Shown here: positions 4,773 to 37,663 of the stretch, piece after piece
Layout of the letters: each line of letters opens with the position of its first letter
Numbering within the stretch: position 1 is the first letter of the stretch
Notes under the pieces: generated by a model
Told to the model about the DNA's origin: nothing
The model's input: the letters and a program-made list of their open reading frames with translations, nothing else
The model's database searches: none
Program-made: the position numbers and the translations under genes
From: Naegleria gruberi
Lineage: Eukaryota
Reading direction: 5' to 3' (one strand)
NCBI GenBank assembly: GCA_000004985.1
Contig: GG738924.1
Length of the DNA: 64,000 bases

Positions 4773-4834
4773 TAAATTAATAGAAAATAATTGGTTCATT
4801 GCAGCAAGATTCTAAGGTTATTAAGGAAAACACT

Positions 4835-4925
4835 GGTGAGATGGTCGAGTGGTCTAAGACGACACGTTAAGGTATGATTAATACCGTGTTCCGCAAGGGC
4901 GTGGGTTCAAATCCCACTCTCATCA
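4835..4925 (+). tRNA. tRNA-Leu(AAG) with an 11-nt intron 3' of position 37
   Basis: Acceptor stem GGTGAGA/TCTCATC, D-arm GTC-GAGTGGTCTAA-GAC, and anticodon stem ACACG/CGTGT. The loop reads TTAAGG[intron TATGATTAATA]C. It has a long variable arm TCCGCAAGGGCGT (class II) and T-arm GTGGG-TTCAAAT-CCCAC. Confidence 0.8.
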
Positions 4926-4989
4926 AATTTTGCTTTAGGAATTGATTGGAAACTAATAAGGCTCTTGATATTTAATTAAATTTCGTTAA

Positions 4990-5001: not shown

Positions 5002-5007
5002 GGGGTT

Positions 5008-5038
<31 letters not shown>

Positions 5039-5074
5039 TGCAGAAGGTCTAGGGTTCGATTCCCTATGACTCCA
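5002..5074 (+). tRNA. tRNA-Ala(UGC)
   Basis: GGGGTTATAGCTCAGTTGGTAGAGCGTCTGCTTTGCATGCAGAAGGTCTAGGGTTCGATTCCCTATGACTCCA. It forms a cloverleaf with anticodon TGC and the G3:U70 alanine identity pair. A T-run lies downstream. Confidence 0.9.
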
Positions 5075-6309: not shown

Positions 6310-6315
6310 GGGGTT

Positions 6316-6346
<31 letters not shown>

Positions 6347-6382
6347 TGCAGAAGGTCTAGGGTTCGATTCCCTATGACTCCA
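6310..6382 (+). tRNA. tRNA-Ala(UGC), copy 2
   Basis: Identical 73-nt sequence to 5002-5074. Confidence 0.9.
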
Positions 6383-7295: not shown

Positions 7296-7301
7296 GGGGT
7301 T

Positions 7302-7332
<31 letters not shown>

Positions 7333-7368
7333 TGCAGAAGGTCTAGGGTTCGATTCCCTATGACTCCA
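7296..7368 (+). tRNA. tRNA-Ala(UGC), copy 3
   Basis: Identical 73-nt sequence to 5002-5074. Confidence 0.9.
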
Positions 7369-11694: not shown

Positions 11695-12534
11695 TTACAC
11701 CTTTGCTCCATAGTACTCACTGCTCAACCTTTCTTGATAAAATTCTTCTGAAAATTCAAGGTAGAAACCATTTGATCTTACAGCTTCTAACTGGACTTGC
11801 TTGTTCATTTTCAAGATAAAAGGAAGATATTTCAAAGCTAGACCATTCTGTTGTACTGCCATCATTGCTAGCTCTTCTGAAATCAAGTTGTCTTCAATAT
11901 TGCAAACCACCAAACCATTGGTAGAGATCGCCTCTCTGATGAAACTTTCGTCATACTGGTGAGGATTGTTCCAAAAAGTTGCATTATTATATTTGATCAG
12001 TTCCAAATACATGTATCTATCTTCCCAACATGAAAATTCTGGAATAAAAAAGTTAATACGTCCACCTTTAGCAGCATACAAAACAATTTCCTTATCCAAT
12101 CTCAAGTTAAGTGAAAGACATTTGTAATTATGTGGATTCGTTTTCATAATGTGGAGTGCTAACTCTCTATCATTTCGTAAATCGCTCGACAAATAATCAA
12201 CAATAAAACATTGTTCATCCATTTTCTGCTCACAAAGTTCAAATATGAAATCTCTCTCGCTCAATATCGTATTTCTGGTGGAATGGAATTGTTCTGGAAG
12301 CTTTTCCAACATGGAAGGTTTTTTCAAGAGTGCAATTTTGAGAATTTCATCATCCATATAGTTAGCATAATGAACAGAATAGGGATTATGTTTAACTGCC
12401 TCTAATATAACCTCCCTGTCACATTTCAATAGATCTGATGCATATCTAAGGCATGATTGACCAGACACTAGTGGTTTATCGCATCTTACAGCCAGTAAAA
12501 CTATTTCTCTATCATTTTTCATTTCTCCACTCAA
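11695..12534 (-). CDS. DUF4116-like repeat protein, probably the 3' part of the gene that starts at 15055 (see the gap finding)
   Basis: Repeats fit the DUF4116 consensus (NDREIVLxAVxxNGxxLxY): MKNDREIVLLAVRCD, DREVILEAVKHNPYSV, DKEIVLYAAKGG, EELAMMAVQQNGLALKYL, QVQLEAVRSNGFYLEF. The first 71 aa are identical to an internal segment of ORF 14035-15055. Confidence 0.5.
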   Translation of the reverse strand: MSGEMKNDREIVLLAVRCDKPLVSGQSCLRYASDLLKCDREVILEAVKHNPYSVHYANYMDDEILKIALLKKPSMLEKLPEQFHSTRNTILSERDFIFELCEQKMDEQCFIVDYLSSDLRNDRELALHIMKTNPHNYKCLSLNLRLDKEIVLYAAKGGRINFFIPEFSCWEDRYMYLELIKYNNATFWNNPHQYDESFIREAISTNGLVVCNIEDNLISEELAMMAVQQNGLALKYLPFILKMNKQVQLEAVRSNGFYLEFSEEFYQERLSSEYYGAKV

Positions 12535-12539
12535 ATATT
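12327..12539. repeat. 213-bp near-identical direct repeat, copy A (copy B is at 14035-14247). The two copies flank the scaffold gap.
   Basis: The aligned sequence runs agagtgcaattttgagaatttcatcatcc...ctccactcaaatatt and differs from copy B at only two positions. Confidence 0.8.
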
Positions 12540-13984
12540 GAGGTCATTCAAAAATTAAGTGTTTTTCAACACAAGCAATACACAAATTTTTTTAGTGGTA
12601 ATTGGATTCATTTTTGTTTGTGTTGTGTGTTTGTGTTTTGGCCATTAAAATTACACATACAATACATATTTTTATTCATCGATATCCATGAGATCTGCGA
12701 GAATTAATTTAGTCTTCACTGCGTATTGGGTATTCGTTTAAATAAATATTCGTTAAAATTGCACAAACCAACACAATTACTGGTTGACAACTAATGGAAT
12801 GCCTAAAAAGTTTTGCTAATATTTGAAATCGCTTTAGAAATGCATTTGTGATTTCAATTATAACTCTTTCATATTTCTGTTCATAATTTAGGTAAGATCC
12901 ATCACTCATAGGTTCAATCAGTTTTCCAGGAATTGAGTTGACCGAAAATCCACTGTCAACATTAACTTTGAATTTTGGATTCTTTTGTACTGCTTTATGA
13001 AGTCCAGATAATTTTAAAACAGTGTTATCATTCATTGAACCTCTAAAACCAATACTAATATGTGCTATTATTCCTGTTCTGTAAGTGGTAATTTGTGTGA
13101 TTAGGTCATGTCTTTTATCTTTTCGGTAATTTAAATGTTGAAGATAATTTGTTCTTGAATGTTTGAAGTGTGTAAATAAAGATTTATATCCTTTAAAGCA
13201 GGTTCCAAGGTTGATTCACCATATGGTGTCTCAATCCTTGAGCTTTTAATCCATTTGTCTTAATTTATTATTTTATTATTTTGTGGTTTTAAAAACATGT
13301 GTTAGATTAGTATTTAACAAAGGATGAGTTAATAAATTATCATCATGTAATTTGATAGTTTGACTTGTTATGTTAGTAGCAATATTAGTTAAAATATGAG
13401 GCAAATCAATACTTAATGTTGATAAACTAATACCAAACATTAAACTAATCCAAGTATTAGCAACACCACCCTTTAAATACATTAAAGCAGCTAATAATCA
13501 ATCTTCATTACTTAAAAGTCTTCTTTCTTTCTGTTATTAAATGATTTATGCTTTGATTAATTTAAATTGTGATATTGTTACTCCTGTCAAAGATAAGAAC
13601 AATCCTTTATCTTATTGAAGAACGGAAGTATTGATTCTTTGTATTCTATTTGTTGAAAATCAATGTGAATCTATTAAACCTTCTTTTTGTAGTGTAAATA
13701 GGATCAAATATTAAAGGAGGTGGAATATTAATTAAGTTTAAAATATTATATATTAATTCAAGTTCAGAATTACTGCAACTTGTTATTAGTAATTGTTCTT
13801 TTATAATTAGTAATAGTTTGTTTTGTTTTTGAGAAGATGAAGAATAATTTCTTCCGATAATGGTGTACCATTAATTGGAGGAGGATTTAAAATATCTTGT
13901 GTAACATTTAACAAGTCCTCCAGTATTTGTTGTGTCGAAGGTGATGGTAGTTGTGTCATTTTTTTTCCATTTAGATTTTTTAAT

Positions 13985-14034
13985 NNNNNNNNNNNNNNNN
14001 NNNNNNNNNNNNNNNNNNNNNNNNNNNNNNNNNN
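13985..14034. other. Assembly/scaffold gap (50 N)
   Basis: A run of 50 n characters. The track ORFs that translate across it (XXXX) are not real. Confidence 0.99.
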
Positions 14035-15055
14035 AGAGCGCAATTTTGAGAATTTCATCATCCATATAGTTAGCATAATGAACAGAATAGGGATTATGTT
14101 TAACTGCCTCTAATATAACCTCCCTGTCACATTTCAATAGATCTGATGCATATCTAAGGCATGATTGACCAGATACTAGTGGTTTATCGCATCTTACAGC
14201 CAGTAAAACTATTTCTCTATCATTTTTCATTTCTCCACTCAAATATTCCAAGCACATACTATTTGATTTCAAAGCGAGGAAAACAATTTCTCTATCCAAT
14301 CTAAACTCGGATGGAGTTTTTGCTATTATATTTCCATTTCGTTTAACAGCTTCTATCACAATATCCCTGTCAGTTGACCATCTTTTTTCTAAATCTCTCA
14401 ATACCAAACCATCAACCCTGACTGCTTTTAAAATCATTTCCCTATCATTCTTCAGATCATTATTTGCAAAATTTAATGAAAACCCATTGTACTTCACACA
14501 TTCTTCTATTATTAATCTATCACTTCTCACTTTCTCAGTTGCCAACTCTAAGAGAAGTAAAACATTCTTTTCTACCAATCCCTCAAATTTAACAATCTCT
14601 AAAAAGTGCTTTTTATCATCAAATACAGCTCTCATTGATGGATAATATGTCATCAATCTATTTAATATATCTTCTTCTAACAAATGTGCATGACTCTTTA
14701 GGAAATTGGCCACAAATTTCGTGTCATTCATTGTATTTTCCAAAGCCAATACTTGCTTTGAATCCACTCTATCGGTCCACAATAAATATTCCAAAGCAAT
14801 ATCAACATCCAACTTTAACATTGGATCAATCATTTCATAAACCATTTGAGGATTATTCTTCATATTTTCAATGATGAATGATTTATCTTTGGCATATTCT
14901 ATGGGAAAATATTCGTATGATTTTTCCATTCGAACAAACCATAACAGTTTGCCAAATTGTTGGCTTTCAAATTTGAATTTTAAATATTGGAAAGTTGGTT
15001 GAGTGGTGATGGGACGATCCGTAAGAATAATTGTAACTGGTTCTAACTCTGACAT
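14035..15055 (-). CDS. DUF4116-like repeat protein, 5' part. The ATG is at 15055 and the ORF is open down to the gap.
   Basis: The repeats NDREMILKAVRVDGLVLRDL, DRDIVIEAVKRNGNIIAK and DREIVFLALKSNSMCLEYLSGEMKNDREIVLLAVRCD are followed by the 213-bp segment identical to 12327-12539. Confidence 0.5.
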
Positions 15056-22348: not shown

Positions 22349-23134
22349 TTAACACAAGACAATGACAAATTGAAGAGTTGCCAATAGGAGCAAGCAAGCC
22401 ATATTGAACGTACCCACAGCAGAATTCATCTTGAAGACATATTCTTGTCCAATGTAGGCCCATGATCTTCCATTGTCCTTTCTGGTTGCAACTACATCAA
22501 TATGATAAGCGGCACTCTTCTTCAGATTTAATACGAAACTAGTTGATGAGGTACATCCTTGAAGTTCACTATCTGCAAAGACAGCACATGCACTTCCATG
22601 AACATCTCCATCATCATGTTCTTGTTCAGAGTGAGCATAGACACAATAGTCGATATAGGCAGCATTCTCAACAACTGGATTCCAACTCAATTCAATTTGG
22701 TCACCATTCTGTTTAACAGTGATGGAATCAGAGGATGGGAGGATTGGATATGGATTGGTAGAGGTTGAGTAGAGGAGATTATATCTTGCCTTGACATTAC
22801 CTGAGTTTGTAACCTTGAGATAATAGGTGGAGTTTCCTGGGAGAATACCATAAATACCTTTAAGATTGAATGGAGTAACAACATTTGGAATATCGTCCTT
22901 GGATGATCTGCTCTTATATTTAATTTGTGGAAATATGAAAGAGAATAAGCTATTGCCTGTGGTCAGTTCGCTTGCTTTAGAGACTTGGGATGAGTTGGCA
23001 ATGAACCAATCAATTTTTCCTTCACAAGGAAGAACAAAAACCATCAAATTGGAGCTAGTGACTGGATCTGTTTTAAATTTGTAAAGATTGGTCATACCAT
23101 TCGATTGAATTACTGAAGGAATGGAAACACCCAT
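22349..23134 (-). CDS. Putative secreted or GPI-anchored protein (body, 261 aa). A 19-codon signal-peptide ORF lies in frame upstream but is separated by a TAA.
   Basis: The body ends in a hydrophobic tail MACLLLLATLQFVIVLC and contains an FN3-like segment. Upstream at 23210-23153 the sequence ATGGCAATATTGCTTGTCATTATTTGCTTCATTACTACTCTTTCAATGGCTCAACAATAA encodes MAILLVIICFITTLSMAQQ* in the same frame. Confidence 0.45.
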   Translation of the reverse strand: MGVSIPSVIQSNGMTNLYKFKTDPVTSSNLMVFVLPCEGKIDWFIANSSQVSKASELTTGNSLFSFIFPQIKYKSRSSKDDIPNVVTPFNLKGIYGILPGNSTYYLKVTNSGNVKARYNLLYSTSTNPYPILPSSDSITVKQNGDQIELSWNPVVENAAYIDYCVYAHSEQEHDDGDVHGSACAVFADSELQGCTSSTSFVLNLKKSAAYHIDVVATRKDNGRSWAYIGQEYVFKMNSAVGTFNMACLLLLATLQFVIVLC

Positions 23135-23430: not shown

Positions 23431-24779
23431 GTGAAATAGTTTAATTTATTTTGTTATTAATATTTCTCACGTATTACTAAGAATCTGTTAACAAATTCAG
23501 TTAATTTACAAGGTTTTGATGATTGGCTTTGATGGCTTTTTACATGTCTTTCTCTTGATACAAATCTTCTTCTTGATTGACTTGCAACACTTTTTCTTTC
23601 CACCAACTAATTTGAATTTCTTACAAATCTTCTTTCCCTTTGAACGTTTCAAACACTTCTTATAATACTTCTTCTTGATACATCTTGGTGGAATGACAAT
23701 TGACTTGGCACAATACTTCTTCTTGTTATATTTCACACATTTGGAAATAGTCTTCTTGTGTTTACAGAACTTGATAGTCTTATGTTTGGCACAGAAGAAT
23801 TTCTTCTTAATGAGACAACATTTCTTAATGGATTTTCTCTCCTTACAATATTTAACCTTCTTATACTTGGCACATTTCTTTGCCCATGAAACAATCTTGC
23901 ACTTTTTAACATATCTACATTTGGCAATCTTCTTATTATAGGAATCAACAGTATACTTATCACAGACTTTCTTCTTTTCACACTTCTTGATTGGAACCTT
24001 CTTGAATTTCTTACAGATCTTCTTGCAACCCTTCTTGACACACTTGTTGACAATCTTGTGTTTGGCACAGAATTTCTTGAAACCCTTCTTAATACAAATC
24101 TTCTTAGTTCCATAAGAATCACAAACTTTCCAATACTTCTTCTTGGCACATCCAACAGTCTTGTATGCATGCAAGACACACTTCTTTGTTGCCTTACTGT
24201 ACTTGTCACATTTGGAATATTTCTTATGTTTGAGACATTTACCAGCACCGACAATTGCATATTGATCACAGACCTTCTTTTGACCGACGAGTTTGTGTTT
24301 CAAACACTTCTTAATCCACTTGTGCTTTAAGCATTTTCTCTTACAAATTCTTGGTTTGTGATACTTGTCAACTACGACAACTGGAGGTTTGGTTTGATAG
24401 CTGTCACTTGCTTGAACTGAGAGGATTGCAAGTAAAAGTAGAATTGCAATTGAAAAGATTAGATTTGTTTTCATTTTTTTGTTGGATAGTAAAGTTCAAA
24501 CACATGGTGCTAATTTAAACCATTTCGAATAGTTTTTCATTTGGAACAAACTCAAAAAGTTAGATGTAAGGTTCCAAATTTGGATGGAAATCTGATTTCC
24601 CTAATGAAACCTTCACTGATTCAATCTACTAATTTACTTTTCAAATATCAACTCATATTTCAAATTTAAATAATGTTATATGATTCGTACATTACAATTA
24701 ATTCAAGTTCTTCTTTCACTTTCAAGGTTTAATGCCTTCTTTTGTGTTTCTATTGAATGAGTAATTCATTAAAAATCTT
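23431..24779. repeat. Segmental duplication copy 1 (~1.35 kb). Its copy is at 33841-35170 in the same orientation.
   Basis: The aligned block starts at gtgaaatagtttaatttattttgttattaatatttctcacgt, runs through the K/C-rich gene and its 5' flank, and ends at ttcaaggtttaatg...tgaatgagtaattcattaaaaatcttt. Only a few substitutions and indels are present. Confidence 0.85.
23506..24474 (-). CDS. Secreted, extremely Lys/Cys-rich basic protein (322 aa), copy 1
   Basis: It starts with a signal peptide MKTNLIFSIAILLLLAILSVQA. The mature part is about 30% Lys and 15% Cys, with reiterated CxKHK, KKC and CAKxK units. The long antisense ORFs in the track are codon-periodicity artefacts. Confidence 0.6.
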   Translation of the reverse strand: MKTNLIFSIAILLLLAILSVQASDSYQTKPPVVVVDKYHKPRICKRKCLKHKWIKKCLKHKLVGQKKVCDQYAIVGAGKCLKHKKYSKCDKYSKATKKCVLHAYKTVGCAKKKYWKVCDSYGTKKICIKKGFKKFCAKHKIVNKCVKKGCKKICKKFKKVPIKKCEKKKVCDKYTVDSYNKKIAKCRYVKKCKIVSWAKKCAKYKKVKYCKERKSIKKCCLIKKKFFCAKHKTIKFCKHKKTISKCVKYNKKKYCAKSIVIPPRCIKKKYYKKCLKRSKGKKICKKFKLVGGKKKCCKSIKKKICIKRKTCKKPSKPIIKTL

Positions 24780-25363
24780 TGGACTCATTCTATGACGTCA
24801 AATATTAATTGACAAGCATTACTTGTTTCTGTGAAAATCACTCGAATATTCACAATACTTCCAATAAGACCAAATCACATGCTTCTTCAGTTGTTGCTAT
24901 TGAAAGTCATGTTTCGTCTGCAAAGAATTGCGACAAGTGCTCGAATGATGATGAAGAGAAAGTTTTGGCAACTCATCGCTGCAAGCAATGTAATTCGTTT
25001 GATTTGTTTTCAAATTGTGAAAGACAATTATTTACAAAAAAAGGATGATGTGCGTAGACAGAAAAAATTGTAATTTGTAATATTGAAAGCAATTTTCACG
25101 TTTCAACCAGTCAGTTATGAGAATTCCATTGAAAAGCTTAAAAAAAAATGACAACCAACAAACCTGTTAGATTTTTCAGTGGCCAAGTCATTGTTACCAA
25201 GAGAACCAATCAATACTTTGAAGTATTTGATTCAGTCTGTGATCAGAAAGCAGACACAGAAACTATGCAAACAGATCAATACAATTATTACATATTTGTT
25301 GCAGTGTTGGCAGATGGAGTGTACAAGTAAAGAATAGAGTAAAGGTGAATGATGTAATCCTAG

Positions 25364-33840: not shown

Positions 33841-35170
33841 GTGAAATAGTTTAATTTATTTTGTTATTAATATTTCTCACGTGTTACTGAGAGTGTGTAA
33901 GTAAATGCCATTAATTTACAAGGATGGTTTAACGATTGGCTTTGATGACTTTTTACATGTCTTTCTCTTGATACAAATCTTCTTCTTGATTGACTTGCAA
34001 CACTTCTTCTTTCCACCAACTAATTTGAATTTCTTACAAATCTTCTTTCCCTTTGAACGTTTCAAACACTTCTTATAATACTTCTTCTTGATACATCTTG
34101 GTGGAATGATAATTGACTTGGCACAATACTTCTTCTTGTTATATTTCACACATTTGGAAATAGTCTTCTTGTGCTTACAGAACTTGATGGTCTTATGTTT
34201 GGCACAGAAGAATTTCTTCTTAATGAGACAACATTTCTTAATGGATTTTCTCTCCTTACAATATTTAACCTTCTTATACTTGGCACATTTCTTTGCCCAT
34301 GAAACAATCTTGCACTTTTTAACATATCTACATTTGGCAACCTTCTTATTATAGGAATCAACAGTGTACTTATCACAGACTTTCTTCTTTTCACACTTCT
34401 TGATTGGAACCTTCTTGAATTTCTTACAGACCTTCTTATATCCCTTCTTGACGCACTTGTTGACAATCTTGTACTTGGCACAGAATTTCTTGAAACCCTT
34501 CTTGATACAAATCTTCTTAGTTCCATAAGAATCACAAACCTTCCAATACTTCTTCTTGGCACATCCAACAGTCTTGTATGCATGTAAGACACACTTCTTT
34601 GTTGCCTTACTGTACTTGTCACATTTGGAATATTTCTTATGTTTGAGACATTTTCCAGCACCGACAATTGCATATTGATCACAGACCTTCTTTTGACCGA
34701 CGAGTTTGTGTTTTAAACACTTCTTAATCCACTTGTGCTTTAAACATTTTCTCTTACAAATTCTTGGTTTGTGATACTTGTCAACAACTGGAGGTTTGGT
34801 TTGATAGCTGTCACTTGCTTGAACTGAGAGGACTGCAAGCAAGAGTAGAATTGCAATTGAAAAGATTAGATTTGTTTTCATTTTTTTTTGTTGGATAGTA
34901 AAGTTCAAACACATGGTGCTAATTTAAACCATTTCGAATAGTTTTTCATTTGGAACAAACTCAAAAAGTTAGATGTAAGGTTCCAAATTTGGATGGAAAT
35001 CTGATTTCCCCTAATGAAACCTTCACTGATTCAATCTACTTAATATCAACTCATATTTCAAATTTAAATAATGTTATATGATTCGTACATTACAATTAAT
35101 TCAAGTTCTTCTTTCACATTCAAGGTTTAATGAGACCTTCTTTTGTGTTTCTATTGAATGAGTAATTCAT
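33841..35170. repeat. Segmental duplication copy 2. It overlaps the 3' end of gene 35120-37663.
   Basis: See copy 1. In this copy the right end of the repeat coincides with the last ~17 codons (ERFLMNYSFNRNTKEGLIKP*) of the adjacent large gene. Confidence 0.85.
33916..34881 (-). CDS. Secreted Lys/Cys-rich basic protein, copy 2 (start at MKTNLIF)
   Basis: It differs from copy 1 by a 2-aa indel (PPVVVVDK in copy 1, PPVVDK here), a few substitutions and the C-terminal residues. The 5' poly-T differs (9 T here, 7 T in copy 1), which explains the spurious upstream ATG in the track. Confidence 0.6.
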   Translation of the reverse strand: MKTNLIFSIAILLLLAVLSVQASDSYQTKPPVVDKYHKPRICKRKCLKHKWIKKCLKHKLVGQKKVCDQYAIVGAGKCLKHKKYSKCDKYSKATKKCVLHAYKTVGCAKKKYWKVCDSYGTKKICIKKGFKKFCAKYKIVNKCVKKGYKKVCKKFKKVPIKKCEKKKVCDKYTVDSYNKKVAKCRYVKKCKIVSWAKKCAKYKKVKYCKERKSIKKCCLIKKKFFCAKHKTIKFCKHKKTISKCVKYNKKKYCAKSIIIPPRCIKKKYYKKCLKRSKGKKICKKFKLVGGKKKCCKSIKKKICIKRKTCKKSSKPIVKPSL

Positions 35171-37663
35171 TAAAAATCTTTCAGTTCTAAGTTTCCTGCA
35201 AGATGGACAAAAAACATCACGGTCATCGGTATCAGTAGATTCTTTACCATTCCATCGTTTGCTGCTAATTATTTCGGCCAATGTTGGAGAATAGAGATAG
35301 GTTAAGCACTTGTCACATTTGGCTATACAGTACTTTCTTGCCAAATGCCTGTCAGAGTATTTCTCCTTTACAAAATCATGGTTTTCTGCTAAAATCTGAA
35401 ACAGTTCTGAAGGTCTATCAATAAAGATGTACTCATCTGTTGTCATAATATTTTCAACTCTTTCTGCATGTTGAATCTCATCAGATTTTAGATTTTTCAT
35501 AAAATCTTCCACATTTTCCGAGTGTTTGAATGGTGTGGTAAGAATAAAATCGAATATAAAGCAGTGATGATTCCTTGATAGGTGTCTACGAAGTTTCCAC
35601 AATGCAGCGCTCAATCCAATACTCTTACATAGGTCAATAAAATAATAATCCACATTTCTCAATACTAAAGGATACAAGTATTCAGAAGCATCCAAATCTA
35701 TAGAACTACTAGGGTCAGTAGTATGCGTTGATTGAACATGCAAGTTAGATGAAGGATGAAACCTATAATATCCAGATTCATAATTCGAGAGATAATTTTT
35801 AAGAGTATGCAATCGGTGGCTTTCAACAATAAAATCACAATGCATGGCATGCAGCAAAGGATGGTCATATTTCAGTACGAATGTGTGAAAACCTCTAGTT
35901 CCATATTTCCATGCCCGCCTATTATTGATTTCTGAGTTTCCGGTTTCTTTAGAAAGAAAATTTATCTTATACTTGAGGGATCTTAAACATTCTAAAACAG
36001 TAAATACTTGTGATCCATCATAGGCAAGTTTGCAGCAATCCAAGTCAAAAAATAAAAGTAACTCCTCAATAGAATCATATTTCAATAAAACTATTTGAAT
36101 ATTTTGGTTGCTTTCCACTCTGTAACCATCCTTTAGACTCATTCTAGGACGTTTTTGACAAATATTAATTGTTGTCTTGGAGCTCATTATGTTATAATCA
36201 AATTTGGTAGATTTCTTCTCAAACATTAGCATTACGTGTTTAATTGCTTGATTAATCACATCATTTGACTCGCCATTATTAATGATGAAAATATCAATAT
36301 CTTGACATCCACAACCAGTTAATGTGTGAAGGAGTGATCCTCCTGAAACAACAAAGCGTTCCTTTGTTTTGGTTGTTCTATTGTACTGAAAGATGCAATC
36401 ATAAATAAGGACTCTTGCTAGTTCATTAAGGAAATGGTTCTTGAATCTTTCTTCGAAATTAGAAAATGTCATCTTGTGAGGATGTTTGAAAAATCTCACC
36501 AATCTCTCCAAGTAAATAGAATAAAGGTCTGGATTTGGTTTGTCTACATATGTGTGATAATCAATTTGTGAATGGCTACCTAATTCACTTTGTTGATTGT
36601 AAAGATCTGGAGTAATTACACGATCCAACTTCCATATTTTGTCCAAATCTGTATAATACTGCCTGGTCATTCCTTTCACACATCTTCTCCTTACAAATTG
36701 ATCAAACGTGAGATAGTATCCATCTTTCTGTGGAAAGAGTCCATAAGGAAAGACAGGAAGACTTTCATTTGACAACTTTTGAATTTCATCATCTGGCAAA
36801 CTATTTAAAGAGGCCATTTTCAAATCAGCAGTATCATTAATTTCCTTAATTTCTGGATCATCCGCTTGATAAACGGTTGAAAACTTTTTCTGATCATGAA
36901 AATAACTCAAAGGCCACGATACTGAACTTCTCGTTCGGAAATATTGATCATAGGTCAACATGACTTTCTCTCCACCACTAGCCAAACTATCCGAAAACAA
37001 ATCAAACGCTCTACTCAACTCTCCAATCTTCCTCTTTCCATTCAAAATATCCAAACGAAGCCTCTCAACACTCTGACCATAAATCTCATCAAACAATTGA
37101 TAAACATCTCGGCATGTACATATAAAATTGAAAAGGCTCTTCGTATCCATATAAAACATCCAATCTAACATTATTTCATTTGGAATTTGCTTGATTAAAT
37201 TATGATCAGGTATTACTTCATAATGAATTTCTCCCCAATCAATATTAATAATATTATTATCATCACCATCATCCTCATCACAATTATTCATTAAATAATT
37301 AGTATCGGAATCGATATATCTTTCTTCATCCTCTTCATGTTTACGTATCAGACCTCCATTGGAAAATATCTTTCCATCTTCAATAATCATTGCCACCTCA
37401 TCAGTACTCGATTTAATTGTATAAATATTGTTGTTGTTGTTGGGTGAGAAAATGTTTGGATTAAATTCATTTTGGATTTTTTCTTGGCGGGAAATTCCAG
37501 AAGAGGAAGCAATCGTAGTGGATTTTTTTTCATGATCCTGAATTTCCTCCCAATCAATAATGAGATCATCATTGTCATCATCACTGATAACGATTACCTG
37601 ATTGTCAGGGGTCTTTTTGGTTGGGCGGGAAGAGGGTGAATCTGAATCAAACTTTCGTTTCAT
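35120..37663 (-). CDS. Large hypothetical protein (847 aa) with an F-box-like motif and a nucleotidyltransferase-fold signature
   Basis: The F-box-like segment reads IPNEIMLDWMFYMDTKSLFNFICTCRDVYQLFDE. The NTase-fold motif reads VVSGGSLLHTLTGCGCQDIDIFII, which fits hG[GS]-x(9-13)-DhDh. Confidence 0.6.
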   Translation of the reverse strand: MKRKFDSDSPSSRPTKKTPDNQVIVISDDDNDDLIIDWEEIQDHEKKSTTIASSSGISRQEKIQNEFNPNIFSPNNNNNIYTIKSSTDEVAMIIEDGKIFSNGGLIRKHEEDEERYIDSDTNYLMNNCDEDDGDDNNIINIDWGEIHYEVIPDHNLIKQIPNEIMLDWMFYMDTKSLFNFICTCRDVYQLFDEIYGQSVERLRLDILNGKRKIGELSRAFDLFSDSLASGGEKVMLTYDQYFRTRSSVSWPLSYFHDQKKFSTVYQADDPEIKEINDTADLKMASLNSLPDDEIQKLSNESLPVFPYGLFPQKDGYYLTFDQFVRRRCVKGMTRQYYTDLDKIWKLDRVITPDLYNQQSELGSHSQIDYHTYVDKPNPDLYSIYLERLVRFFKHPHKMTFSNFEERFKNHFLNELARVLIYDCIFQYNRTTKTKERFVVSGGSLLHTLTGCGCQDIDIFIINNGESNDVINQAIKHVMLMFEKKSTKFDYNIMSSKTTINICQKRPRMSLKDGYRVESNQNIQIVLLKYDSIEELLLFFDLDCCKLAYDGSQVFTVLECLRSLKYKINFLSKETGNSEINNRRAWKYGTRGFHTFVLKYDHPLLHAMHCDFIVESHRLHTLKNYLSNYESGYYRFHPSSNLHVQSTHTTDPSSSIDLDASEYLYPLVLRNVDYYFIDLCKSIGLSAALWKLRRHLSRNHHCFIFDFILTTPFKHSENVEDFMKNLKSDEIQHAERVENIMTTDEYIFIDRPSELFQILAENHDFVKEKYSDRHLARKYCIAKCDKCLTYLYSPTLAEIISSKRWNGKESTDTDDRDVFCPSCRKLRTERFLMNYSFNRNTKEGLIKP

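Follow-up and report, generated by a model that had tools for sequence, protein, structure and literature searches.

A 64,000-nucleotide window of the Naegleria gruberi genome (contig GG738924.1 of assembly GCA_000004985.1) contains, at positions 23506–24474 of its minus strand, an open reading frame (ORF) whose translation is extraordinarily rich in lysine and cysteine, which raises the question of whether it is a gene and, if it is, what kind of protein it encodes. An earlier note on this DNA had proposed a real gene, present in two copies that each encode about 320 residues, and our analysis bears this out. Copy A, recognized from the ORF list, its composition and its homologues, encodes 322 aa plus a stop codon, and copy B (33916–34881, minus strand) encodes 321 aa plus a stop codon. 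We refer to the product as the ladder protein, after the ladder of disulfides that it is predicted to form. Comparison by blastn placed each copy within a duplicated unit of only 1.35 kb: unit A (23431–24780, minus strand) comprises the gene with ~306 bp upstream and ~75 bp downstream, and unit B (33841–35181) has the same orientation and lies 10.4 kb away. The units are 95.4% identical over 1359 alignment columns (gaps counted), the encoded proteins are ~97% identical, and the genes between the units are unrelated.

The coding sequences of copies A and B differ by 15 synonymous and 9 non-synonymous changes, the latter conservative (mostly Ile/Val, plus Cys150Tyr and His139Tyr), and by two indels, both of which are in frame. 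This pattern identifies the Lys/Cys frame as the one under selection, and a rough estimate puts the ratio of non-synonymous to synonymous substitution rates (dN/dS) at roughly 0.2. Homologues are collinear with both copies from the signal peptide through the C-terminus, which supports a real coding gene. Copies A and B are thus real genes under purifying selection, and they are tandemly dispersed paralogues of a Naegleria-specific gene. As all of the homologues begin with MK-, the initiating Met is placed at 24474 in copy A and at 34881 in copy B, where the length is counted from the conserved MKTNL start. The ORF of copy B runs on to 34914 through an upstream ATG (MCLNFTIQQKK-). We did not accept this ATG as the start, since in copy A it is out of frame and the homologues lack it.

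Other ORFs overlap the gene, the longest of which, with 178 aa, lies on the same strand but in a different frame (23733–24269, with a counterpart at 34146–34682). Because it is in the Lys/Cys frame that the substitutions between copies A and B prove synonymous or conservative, this ORF is a spurious by-product of codon composition, and the extra ORFs over the locus arise from AAG/AAA/TGT-rich codons. The earlier note had pointed to long antisense ORFs as a sign of a repetitive coding sequence, and here our results disagree: the antisense ORFs are only 88–90 aa long, and Tandem Repeats Finder (TRF) detected a single 29-nt array at the locus, the DNA being otherwise not tandemly repetitive.

The protein looks secreted, as had been suggested. 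Its N-terminus (residues 1–23, encoded by 24406–24474, minus strand) reads MKTNLIFSIAILLLLAILSVQA followed by SDSY, and by its hydrophobicity profile and the −3/−1 rule it resembles a cleavable signal peptide: the n-, h- and c-regions can be read from the sequence as a basic segment, a 16-residue hydrophobic core and V-Q-A at −3/−1. This feature is conserved among all full-length relatives, and both copies are therefore expected to enter the secretory pathway. The hydrophilic C-terminal tail, KKPSKPIIKTL (23506–23541 with the stop codon, minus strand), contains no membrane anchor, no hydrophobic end of the glycosylphosphatidylinositol (GPI) type and no KDEL, as judged from the translation.

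The mature part of 299 aa comprises 106 Lys, 7 Arg, 8 His, 7 Asp and 2 Glu and has no N-x-S/T site. Lys makes up 35.5% of it, Cys 11.0%, and Asp and Glu together 3.0%, giving an isoelectric point (pI) of 10.15, a net charge of +104 and one positive charge per 2.6 residues. The extreme richness in Lys and Cys that had been reported for this locus therefore stands, with the figures of about 30% Lys and 15% Cys revised upward and downward, respectively. Copy A has 33 Cys residues and copy B has 32: position 150, a Cys in copy A, is occupied by Tyr in copy B and by His in the closest relative. The conserved number is therefore 32. All seven Asp residues lie in D-x-Y motifs. Two are in an N-terminal linker (residues 24–43; 24346–24405, minus strand) that carries two D-x-Y-x(1–3)-K-P motifs (SDSYQTKPP and VDKYHKP), and five are within the ladder, including two in a central segment (CDKYTVDSYNKK). 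Paralogues carry related tandem VD[ST]YKPPK motifs at their termini.

Relatives were found by an exhaustive phmmer search together with a profile search; a word-indexed search gave only two, one of which is NAEGRDRAFT_76199. The phmmer E values were 2.5e-57 for the relative P0003 (residues 1–310 against 1–296) and 3.7e-20 for a protein of N. fowleri, and the profile search of the family gave E values of 3.7e-91 to 5.7e-42. Besides copies A and B, the family has about five members in N. gruberi: NAEGRDRAFT_67458 (301 aa, 50% identical), NAEGRDRAFT_71888 (371 aa), NAEGRDRAFT_74241 (396 aa), the long-form NAEGRDRAFT_57793 (707 aa) and NAEGRDRAFT_76199. There are members in N. fowleri (FDP41_004030, 379 aa, and FDP41_002578, 704 aa) and in N. 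lovaniensis (C9374_009239, 430 aa), and further relatives in environmental metagenomes and SRA data. All relatives whose source is named come from Naegleria, and their annotations go no further than “predicted,” “hypothetical,” or “uncharacterized”; those from metagenomes have either no name or the label “hypothetical.” All members are basic (pI 9.2–10.3), with ~10% Cys and a modal Cys spacing of 9. Their Lys content ranges from 13% to 33%, with copies A and B at the extreme, and the distant members are moderately basic, with 13–14% Lys and 8% Glu.

Searches for a characterized family were negative. Pfam yielded no family at E ≤ 0.01 for the ladder protein and none at E ≤ 0.1 for seven relatives, a sequence profile search of the PDB gave no match, and fold searches with an AlphaFold2 (AF2) model returned nothing significant. 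The statement in the earlier note that the protein has no recognizable homology is correct insofar as no characterized family was matched, and it needs amending in that the protein belongs to a family restricted to Naegleria whose Cys framework is conserved. An origin from a phage or a giant virus was also considered and rejected, because there was no phage DNA match and no relative on a viral contig, and the homologues are all from Naegleria.

The Lys-rich composition, and the presence of other long ORFs over the locus, might suggest an intracellular nucleic-acid-binding protein of the histone, protamine or ribosomal type, or else an ORF that is an artefact of composition. A clear match to a histone-like or ribosomal family, which had been named as a finding that would overturn the note's interpretation, was looked for in the Pfam, PDB and fold searches, and none was found. 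A hydrophobic signal sequence kept across the family argues against a nuclear or cytosolic location, the conserved Cys residues are even in number and occupy a fixed framework, and conservation is specific to one frame both from copy to copy and across species. We regard this explanation as effectively refuted.

Several relatives have additional or unusual architectures. Long-form members, namely P0024 (NAEGRDRAFT_57793), P0029 (FDP41_002578), P0017, and P0023, contain about seven repeats of ~40 aa at residues about 100–375, ahead of the ladder domain. These repeats are four-Cys modules with the pattern CP-x(7–10)-C-x(17–19)-C-x4-C, and they have no Pfam match. NAEGRDRAFT_76199 (P0002), the nearest N. 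gruberi reference gene model, consists of a SAM/PB1 protein fused to the last 150 residues of the ladder protein (~97% identical), the N-terminal half of which is missing. Its Lys/Cys part matches 23515–23967 and 33919–34380, its SAM/PB1 part is not encoded in the window, and its C-terminus (KPSKPIIKPSL) has traits of both copy A and copy B. The model is probably a mis-predicted chimera, the alternative being a third locus or allele. The intact ladder protein is absent from a collection of 15 billion sequences; with this absence and the apparently chimeric NAEGRDRAFT_76199, the extreme composition has evidently defeated gene prediction. P0012 (539 aa) has ~25 tandem 11-residue repeats (CDRHKLIGAGH), akin to CDQYAIVGAGKCLKHK of the ladder protein, before an unrelated globular C-terminal region; the likeness probably reflects chance or low complexity and not family membership.

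The reiterated short units that had been noticed in the sequence are real. The spacing between successive Cys residues has a mode of 9, and the autocorrelation reaches z = 7.8 at a shift of 9, with further peaks at 18, 27, and 36. A spacing of 9 occurs 13–14 times, the others being 10, 11, and 12, and the protein has just two CC doublets, with C-x-C and C-x-x-C motifs absent. The consensus unit is C-[A/V/L/K]-K-[Y/H/K]-K-x-[I/V/K]-K-[V/I/F/Y/K], in which each Cys is flanked by hydrophobic residues. We rejected a tandem repeat in the DNA as the source of the periodicity, given the one 29-nt array found by TRF, and the periodicity is accordingly that of an old, diverged repeat at the protein level. 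A metal-binding role for C-x-K-H-K was rejected, since its His is not conserved and gives way to Tyr or Lys, and a metallothionein-like protein was rejected because the Cys residues lie 9–12 apart, with two CC doublets, in place of the clustered C-x-C, C-C and C-x-x-C motifs of that class.

Some 30 reiterated units of ~9 residues, rich in KK and KR sites, might also be the footprint of a polyprotein precursor that is cut at basic sites into short cationic Cys peptides; the pore-forming peptides of Naegleria come from multi-peptide precursors. The units of the ladder protein are not identical, however, and are not encoded by a tandem repeat. Moreover, the mirrored Cys spacing, the equal number of Cys residues per arm and the paired loss of Cys residues described below can be understood only if the chain stays whole and folds, and we consider a polyprotein very improbable.

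The arrangement of the Cys residues falls into two arms. The N arm (residues 44–171; 23962–24345, minus strand) contains 15 conserved Cys residues, mostly 9 apart, plus the non-conserved Cys150. The C arm (residues 186–311; 23542–23919, minus strand) contains 15 Cys residues assigned to the ladder and two spare ones in the CC doublets at 219/220 and 296/297. Between the arms is the largest Cys-free gap, the predicted hairpin tip (residues 172–185, DKYTVDSYNKKIAK; 23920–23961, minus strand). Counted outward from this tip, the Cys spacings of copy B are 6, 11, 9, 9, 9, 9, 9, 10, 10, 9, 11, 12, 9, 4 on one arm and 6, 9, 9, 9, 9, 9, 9, 9, 10, 9, 10, 12, 9, 6 on the other. The misfit between the arms is 6 when they are compared as mirror images and 16 when they are compared directly, against 23.6 ± 3.7 for shuffled spacings (P about 1.5e-4). 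Because gene duplication yields direct rather than mirror repeats, the mirrored spacing points to a constraint imposed by antiparallel pairing.

The same mirrored spacing is found in paralogues and orthologues. With CC doublets merged, the number of Cys residues per arm is equal in all full-length short-form members, being 15/15 in copy B, NAEGRDRAFT_67458, NAEGRDRAFT_74241, NAEGRDRAFT_71888, and N. fowleri and 18/18 in N. lovaniensis. Irregular spacings pair across the arms: 6/6 beside the tip, followed by 10/10, 12/12, and 9/9, with 17/18 in the N. fowleri type and 15/21 in N. lovaniensis, where the two widened intervals fall at one and the same rung on both arms. In N. fowleri-type members, both partners of predicted rung 2 (the equivalents of Cys165 and Cys192) have been lost and one new rung has been gained at the tip, which is lengthened to 37–41 residues in the N. 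fowleri and N. lovaniensis relatives.

Structure prediction agrees with this arrangement. With only three near-identical sequences, AF2 gave an unusable model with a predicted local distance difference test score (pLDDT) of 37 and no hairpin. With an alignment of 11 family sequences, the mean pLDDT rose to 69 and reached 83–91 over residues 90–170 and 190–270; the hairpin signal thus stems from the alignment. In the latter model, strand is essentially continuous over residues 55–171 and 186–299 and is unbroken over 96–171 and 186–261. The break at the tip (172–185) sits exactly between Cys171 and Cys186, and the remaining breaks, at 93–95/262–264, 75–79/278–283, and 64–65/291–292, fall in matching Cys-to-Cys intervals on the two arms. 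The weak, non-significant matches from the fold searches were to the pore stems of anthrax protective antigen, lysenin, and aerolysin and to phage tail proteins; all of these have very long β-hairpins, as would be expected if the query were a giant two-stranded hairpin.

From the AF2 model, the symmetry of the Cys residues, and their covariation, we propose with medium confidence that residues about 44–171 and 186–311 are the two strands of one long antiparallel β-hairpin that would be joined by ~15 cross-strand disulfides. The model that we favour has ~115 residues per strand and a rung roughly every 9 residues, and it would be ~35–40 nm long if fully extended, reckoned at 3.3 Å per residue. 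One Cys from each of the CC doublets would be left over and could form intermolecular bonds.

Several considerations weigh against this structure. The predicted template modeling score of the AF2 model is 0.25, and only two of the five models exceed a pLDDT of 60. The disulfide pairs are predicted from the register and the order of the Cys residues rather than from coordinates. If there are no bulges, an odd period of 9 residues would place every other Cys pair at a hydrogen-bonded site, where cross-strand disulfides are disfavoured, and only the remaining pairs at the favoured, non-hydrogen-bonded sites. Pairing of opposite charges across the arms was not enriched at the predicted register (shift 0), and the cross-arm test showed only an even/odd parity of hydrophobic residues, which is consistent with β-strands. 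The mirror pattern is largely a single ancestral inheritance, so that only the losses, gains and insertions of rungs count as independent. Finally, a two-stranded ribbon would expose the ~30% of residues that are hydrophobic, and it probably needs partners or higher-order packing.

What might a secreted rod of this kind do? Our tentative proposal is that the ladder protein is a structural extracellular component, likeliest of the cyst wall or of another secreted coat, in which it would serve as a laddered polycationic rod. Coated with lysines, the rod would attach by electrostatic attraction to polyanionic or glycan polymers of the wall and would then be locked into a network through its spare Cys residues and through Tyr/Lys-type cross-linking at the terminal Asp-x-Tyr and Lys-Pro motifs, and the two gene copies would supply the protein in bulk. 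The evidence for such a role is circumstantial. Long-form members add an N-terminal array of ~40-aa four-Cys modules, and arrays of Cys modules are typical of matrix proteins. Paralogues end in tandem KVDTYKPPK motifs, every one of the seven Asp residues of the ladder protein is in D-x-Y, the scaffold is strictly conserved, and the copies are under purifying rather than diversifying selection.

The ladder protein has likenesses to several kinds of structural protein. The cyst wall proteins of Acanthamoeba include Jonah-1, with a Thr/Lys/Cys-rich domain, and the Leo-TKH lectins, with basic Thr/Lys/His-rich spacers (PMC6541295). The ladder protein has the secretory-type signal, as judged from sequence, and the Cys-rich repeat architecture of such proteins. 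It resembles Jonah-1, Leo-TKH, and other protist cyst and oocyst wall proteins (Jacob of Entamoeba and COWP of Cryptosporidium) in its regular Cys residues, its basic Lys/His stretches, and its membership of a lineage-restricted multigene family. It differs from them in having no sequence or domain match and no recognized carbohydrate-binding module; Pfam gave no match to CBM49, CAA, the eight-Cys Leo, six-Cys Jacob and COWP domains, or the leucine-rich repeats of Giardia CWP. The terminal D-x-Y-(x)-K-P-P-K motifs, of which KVDTYKPPK in the paralogue NAEGRDRAFT_74241 occurs four times, recall the cross-linking motifs of structural and adhesive proteins rich in Tyr, Lys, and Pro, such as AKPSYPPTYK of mussel foot protein-1, PPVYK of plant proline-rich proteins, and the DKY-type repeats of trematode eggshells. 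As a lead only, high Lys together with Tyr and Cys is reminiscent of materials that are cross-linked by quinones or dityrosine. Unlike these proteins, however, the ladder protein has few such motifs (two terminal and five inside the ladder), and the Cys ladder makes up its bulk. Short Cys-periodic repeats and a predicted elongated, disulfide-stabilized β-structure are reminiscent of the antifreeze β-helix of Tenebrio, a solenoid of 12-residue TCT repeats, and of granulin, a stack of hairpins, but the ladder protein is predicted to be one giant hairpin, with a different period and composition and no match to either in the fold searches.

The principal competing explanation is that the protein is a giant cationic, disulfide-stapled β-hairpin peptide that is secreted or delivered to phagosomes, where it would bind lipopolysaccharide, teichoic acids, or the anionic membranes of food bacteria and would agglutinate or permeabilize the cells. 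The likeness to cationic, Cys-stabilized antimicrobial peptides that the earlier note had pointed out holds for the predicted fold, which, as in protegrin, tachyplesin, and θ-defensin, is a strongly cationic two-stranded antiparallel hairpin with parallel cross-strand disulfides. It does not extend to size: those peptides have 17–18 residues and 2–3 disulfides spaced 2 residues apart, whereas the mature ladder protein has 299 residues (antimicrobial peptides are about 15–40 aa long) and ~15 predicted rungs 9 residues apart. There is also no sequence relationship to an antimicrobial peptide family, as the Pfam and PDB searches gave no match. The net charge of +104, the ~30% of hydrophobic residues flanking each Cys, the predicted cystine-ladder hairpin, and the bacterivorous habit of the host all accord with an antimicrobial or bacteria-binding role, and duplication and lineage restriction are common among immune effectors. 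Set against this, the protein is long and non-amphipathic, with Lys on both faces, and its Cys scaffold is strictly conserved at the low dN/dS given above, whereas antimicrobial peptides usually diversify. The distant members, furthermore, are only moderately basic and carry matrix-like N-terminal modules. On this balance we judge an antimicrobial role unlikely, if still a serious contender.

The charge density, the putative signal peptide, and the lack of N-glycosylation sites would also suit a protein that condenses or packages polyanions in the secretory pathway, compacting polyphosphate, acidic polysaccharide, or extracellular DNA without being a component of the wall. Nothing that we found speaks specifically for this role, and a 15-rung framework, spare Cys residues, and Tyr/Pro/Lys motifs would be needless for the neutralization of charge; packaging is, in our estimation, improbable.

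As for the structural, wall-associated role itself, the literature, searched by locus tag, accession, and topic and including two supplements, contained no data that we could find on expression, localization, or binding for any family member. The function is therefore proposed by analogy, and our confidence in it is low to medium. A more specific version of the proposal is that the protein represents a new architecture, unmatched among solved structures, a free-standing hairpin rod of ~40 nm with >100 residues per strand, ~15 disulfides, and ~100 positive charges, that acts as a cross-linkable building block of the cyst wall in Naegleria, N. fowleri included. We consider this possible but doubtful.

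The mirror symmetry of the Cys residues, the ladder model, and the extreme Lys content of the subfamily were not found in any searchable paper or database name. If the model is correct, no other cross-strand cystine ladder known to us comes near this one in length, and the protein would offer a naturally occurring design for a stiff polycationic nanorod, of relevance to protein structure and to biomaterials research. The family, confined to Naegleria, is represented by orthologues in the brain-eating N. fowleri; a genus-specific and abundant wall scaffold, should it prove to be one, would give diagnostics a candidate antigen and offer a way into the problem of cyst resistance. A molecular inventory of Naegleria cyst wall proteins was not found in the searchable literature, and standard proteomics would probably miss this family, as Lys-rich proteins yield tryptic peptides that are too short.

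The window as a whole has a GC content of ~33%, and neighbouring genes encode an F-box-Ras protein, a protein kinase, an eEF2-like GTPase, and DUF4116 proteins. Adjoining copy B is a minus-strand ORF of 847 aa (35120–37663), the 3′ end of which overlaps unit B (ending at 35181). It had no Pfam match in our scan and belongs to a family expanded in Naegleria (precomputed PF26128; some members are linked to F-box or RGS domains). As its best match in N. gruberi is only 52% identical, its true orthologue is absent from the annotated reference proteome. Directly downstream of copy A, a minus-strand ORF of 261 aa (22349–23134) has a sub-threshold Pfam match of the fibronectin-III/NDNF type and a hydrophobic C-terminal tail resembling a GPI signal or a transmembrane segment; it has no obvious signal peptide, and so an upstream exon may be missing.

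A direct repeat of 213 nt with 99% identity (12327–12539 and 14035–14247) lies inside the neighbouring minus-strand ORFs 11695–12534 and 13871–15055, the latter of which contains four DUF4116 repeats, and it suggests that paralogues have recently been duplicated or have undergone gene conversion. On the plus strand, three identical tRNA-Ala(TGC) genes (5002–5074, 6310–6382, and 7296–7368) form a loose tandem, 1308 and 986 bp apart. They are preceded on the same strand by a tRNA-like gene of 91–93 nt (4834–4926), to which ARAGORN assigned no anticodon and which may hold an intron.

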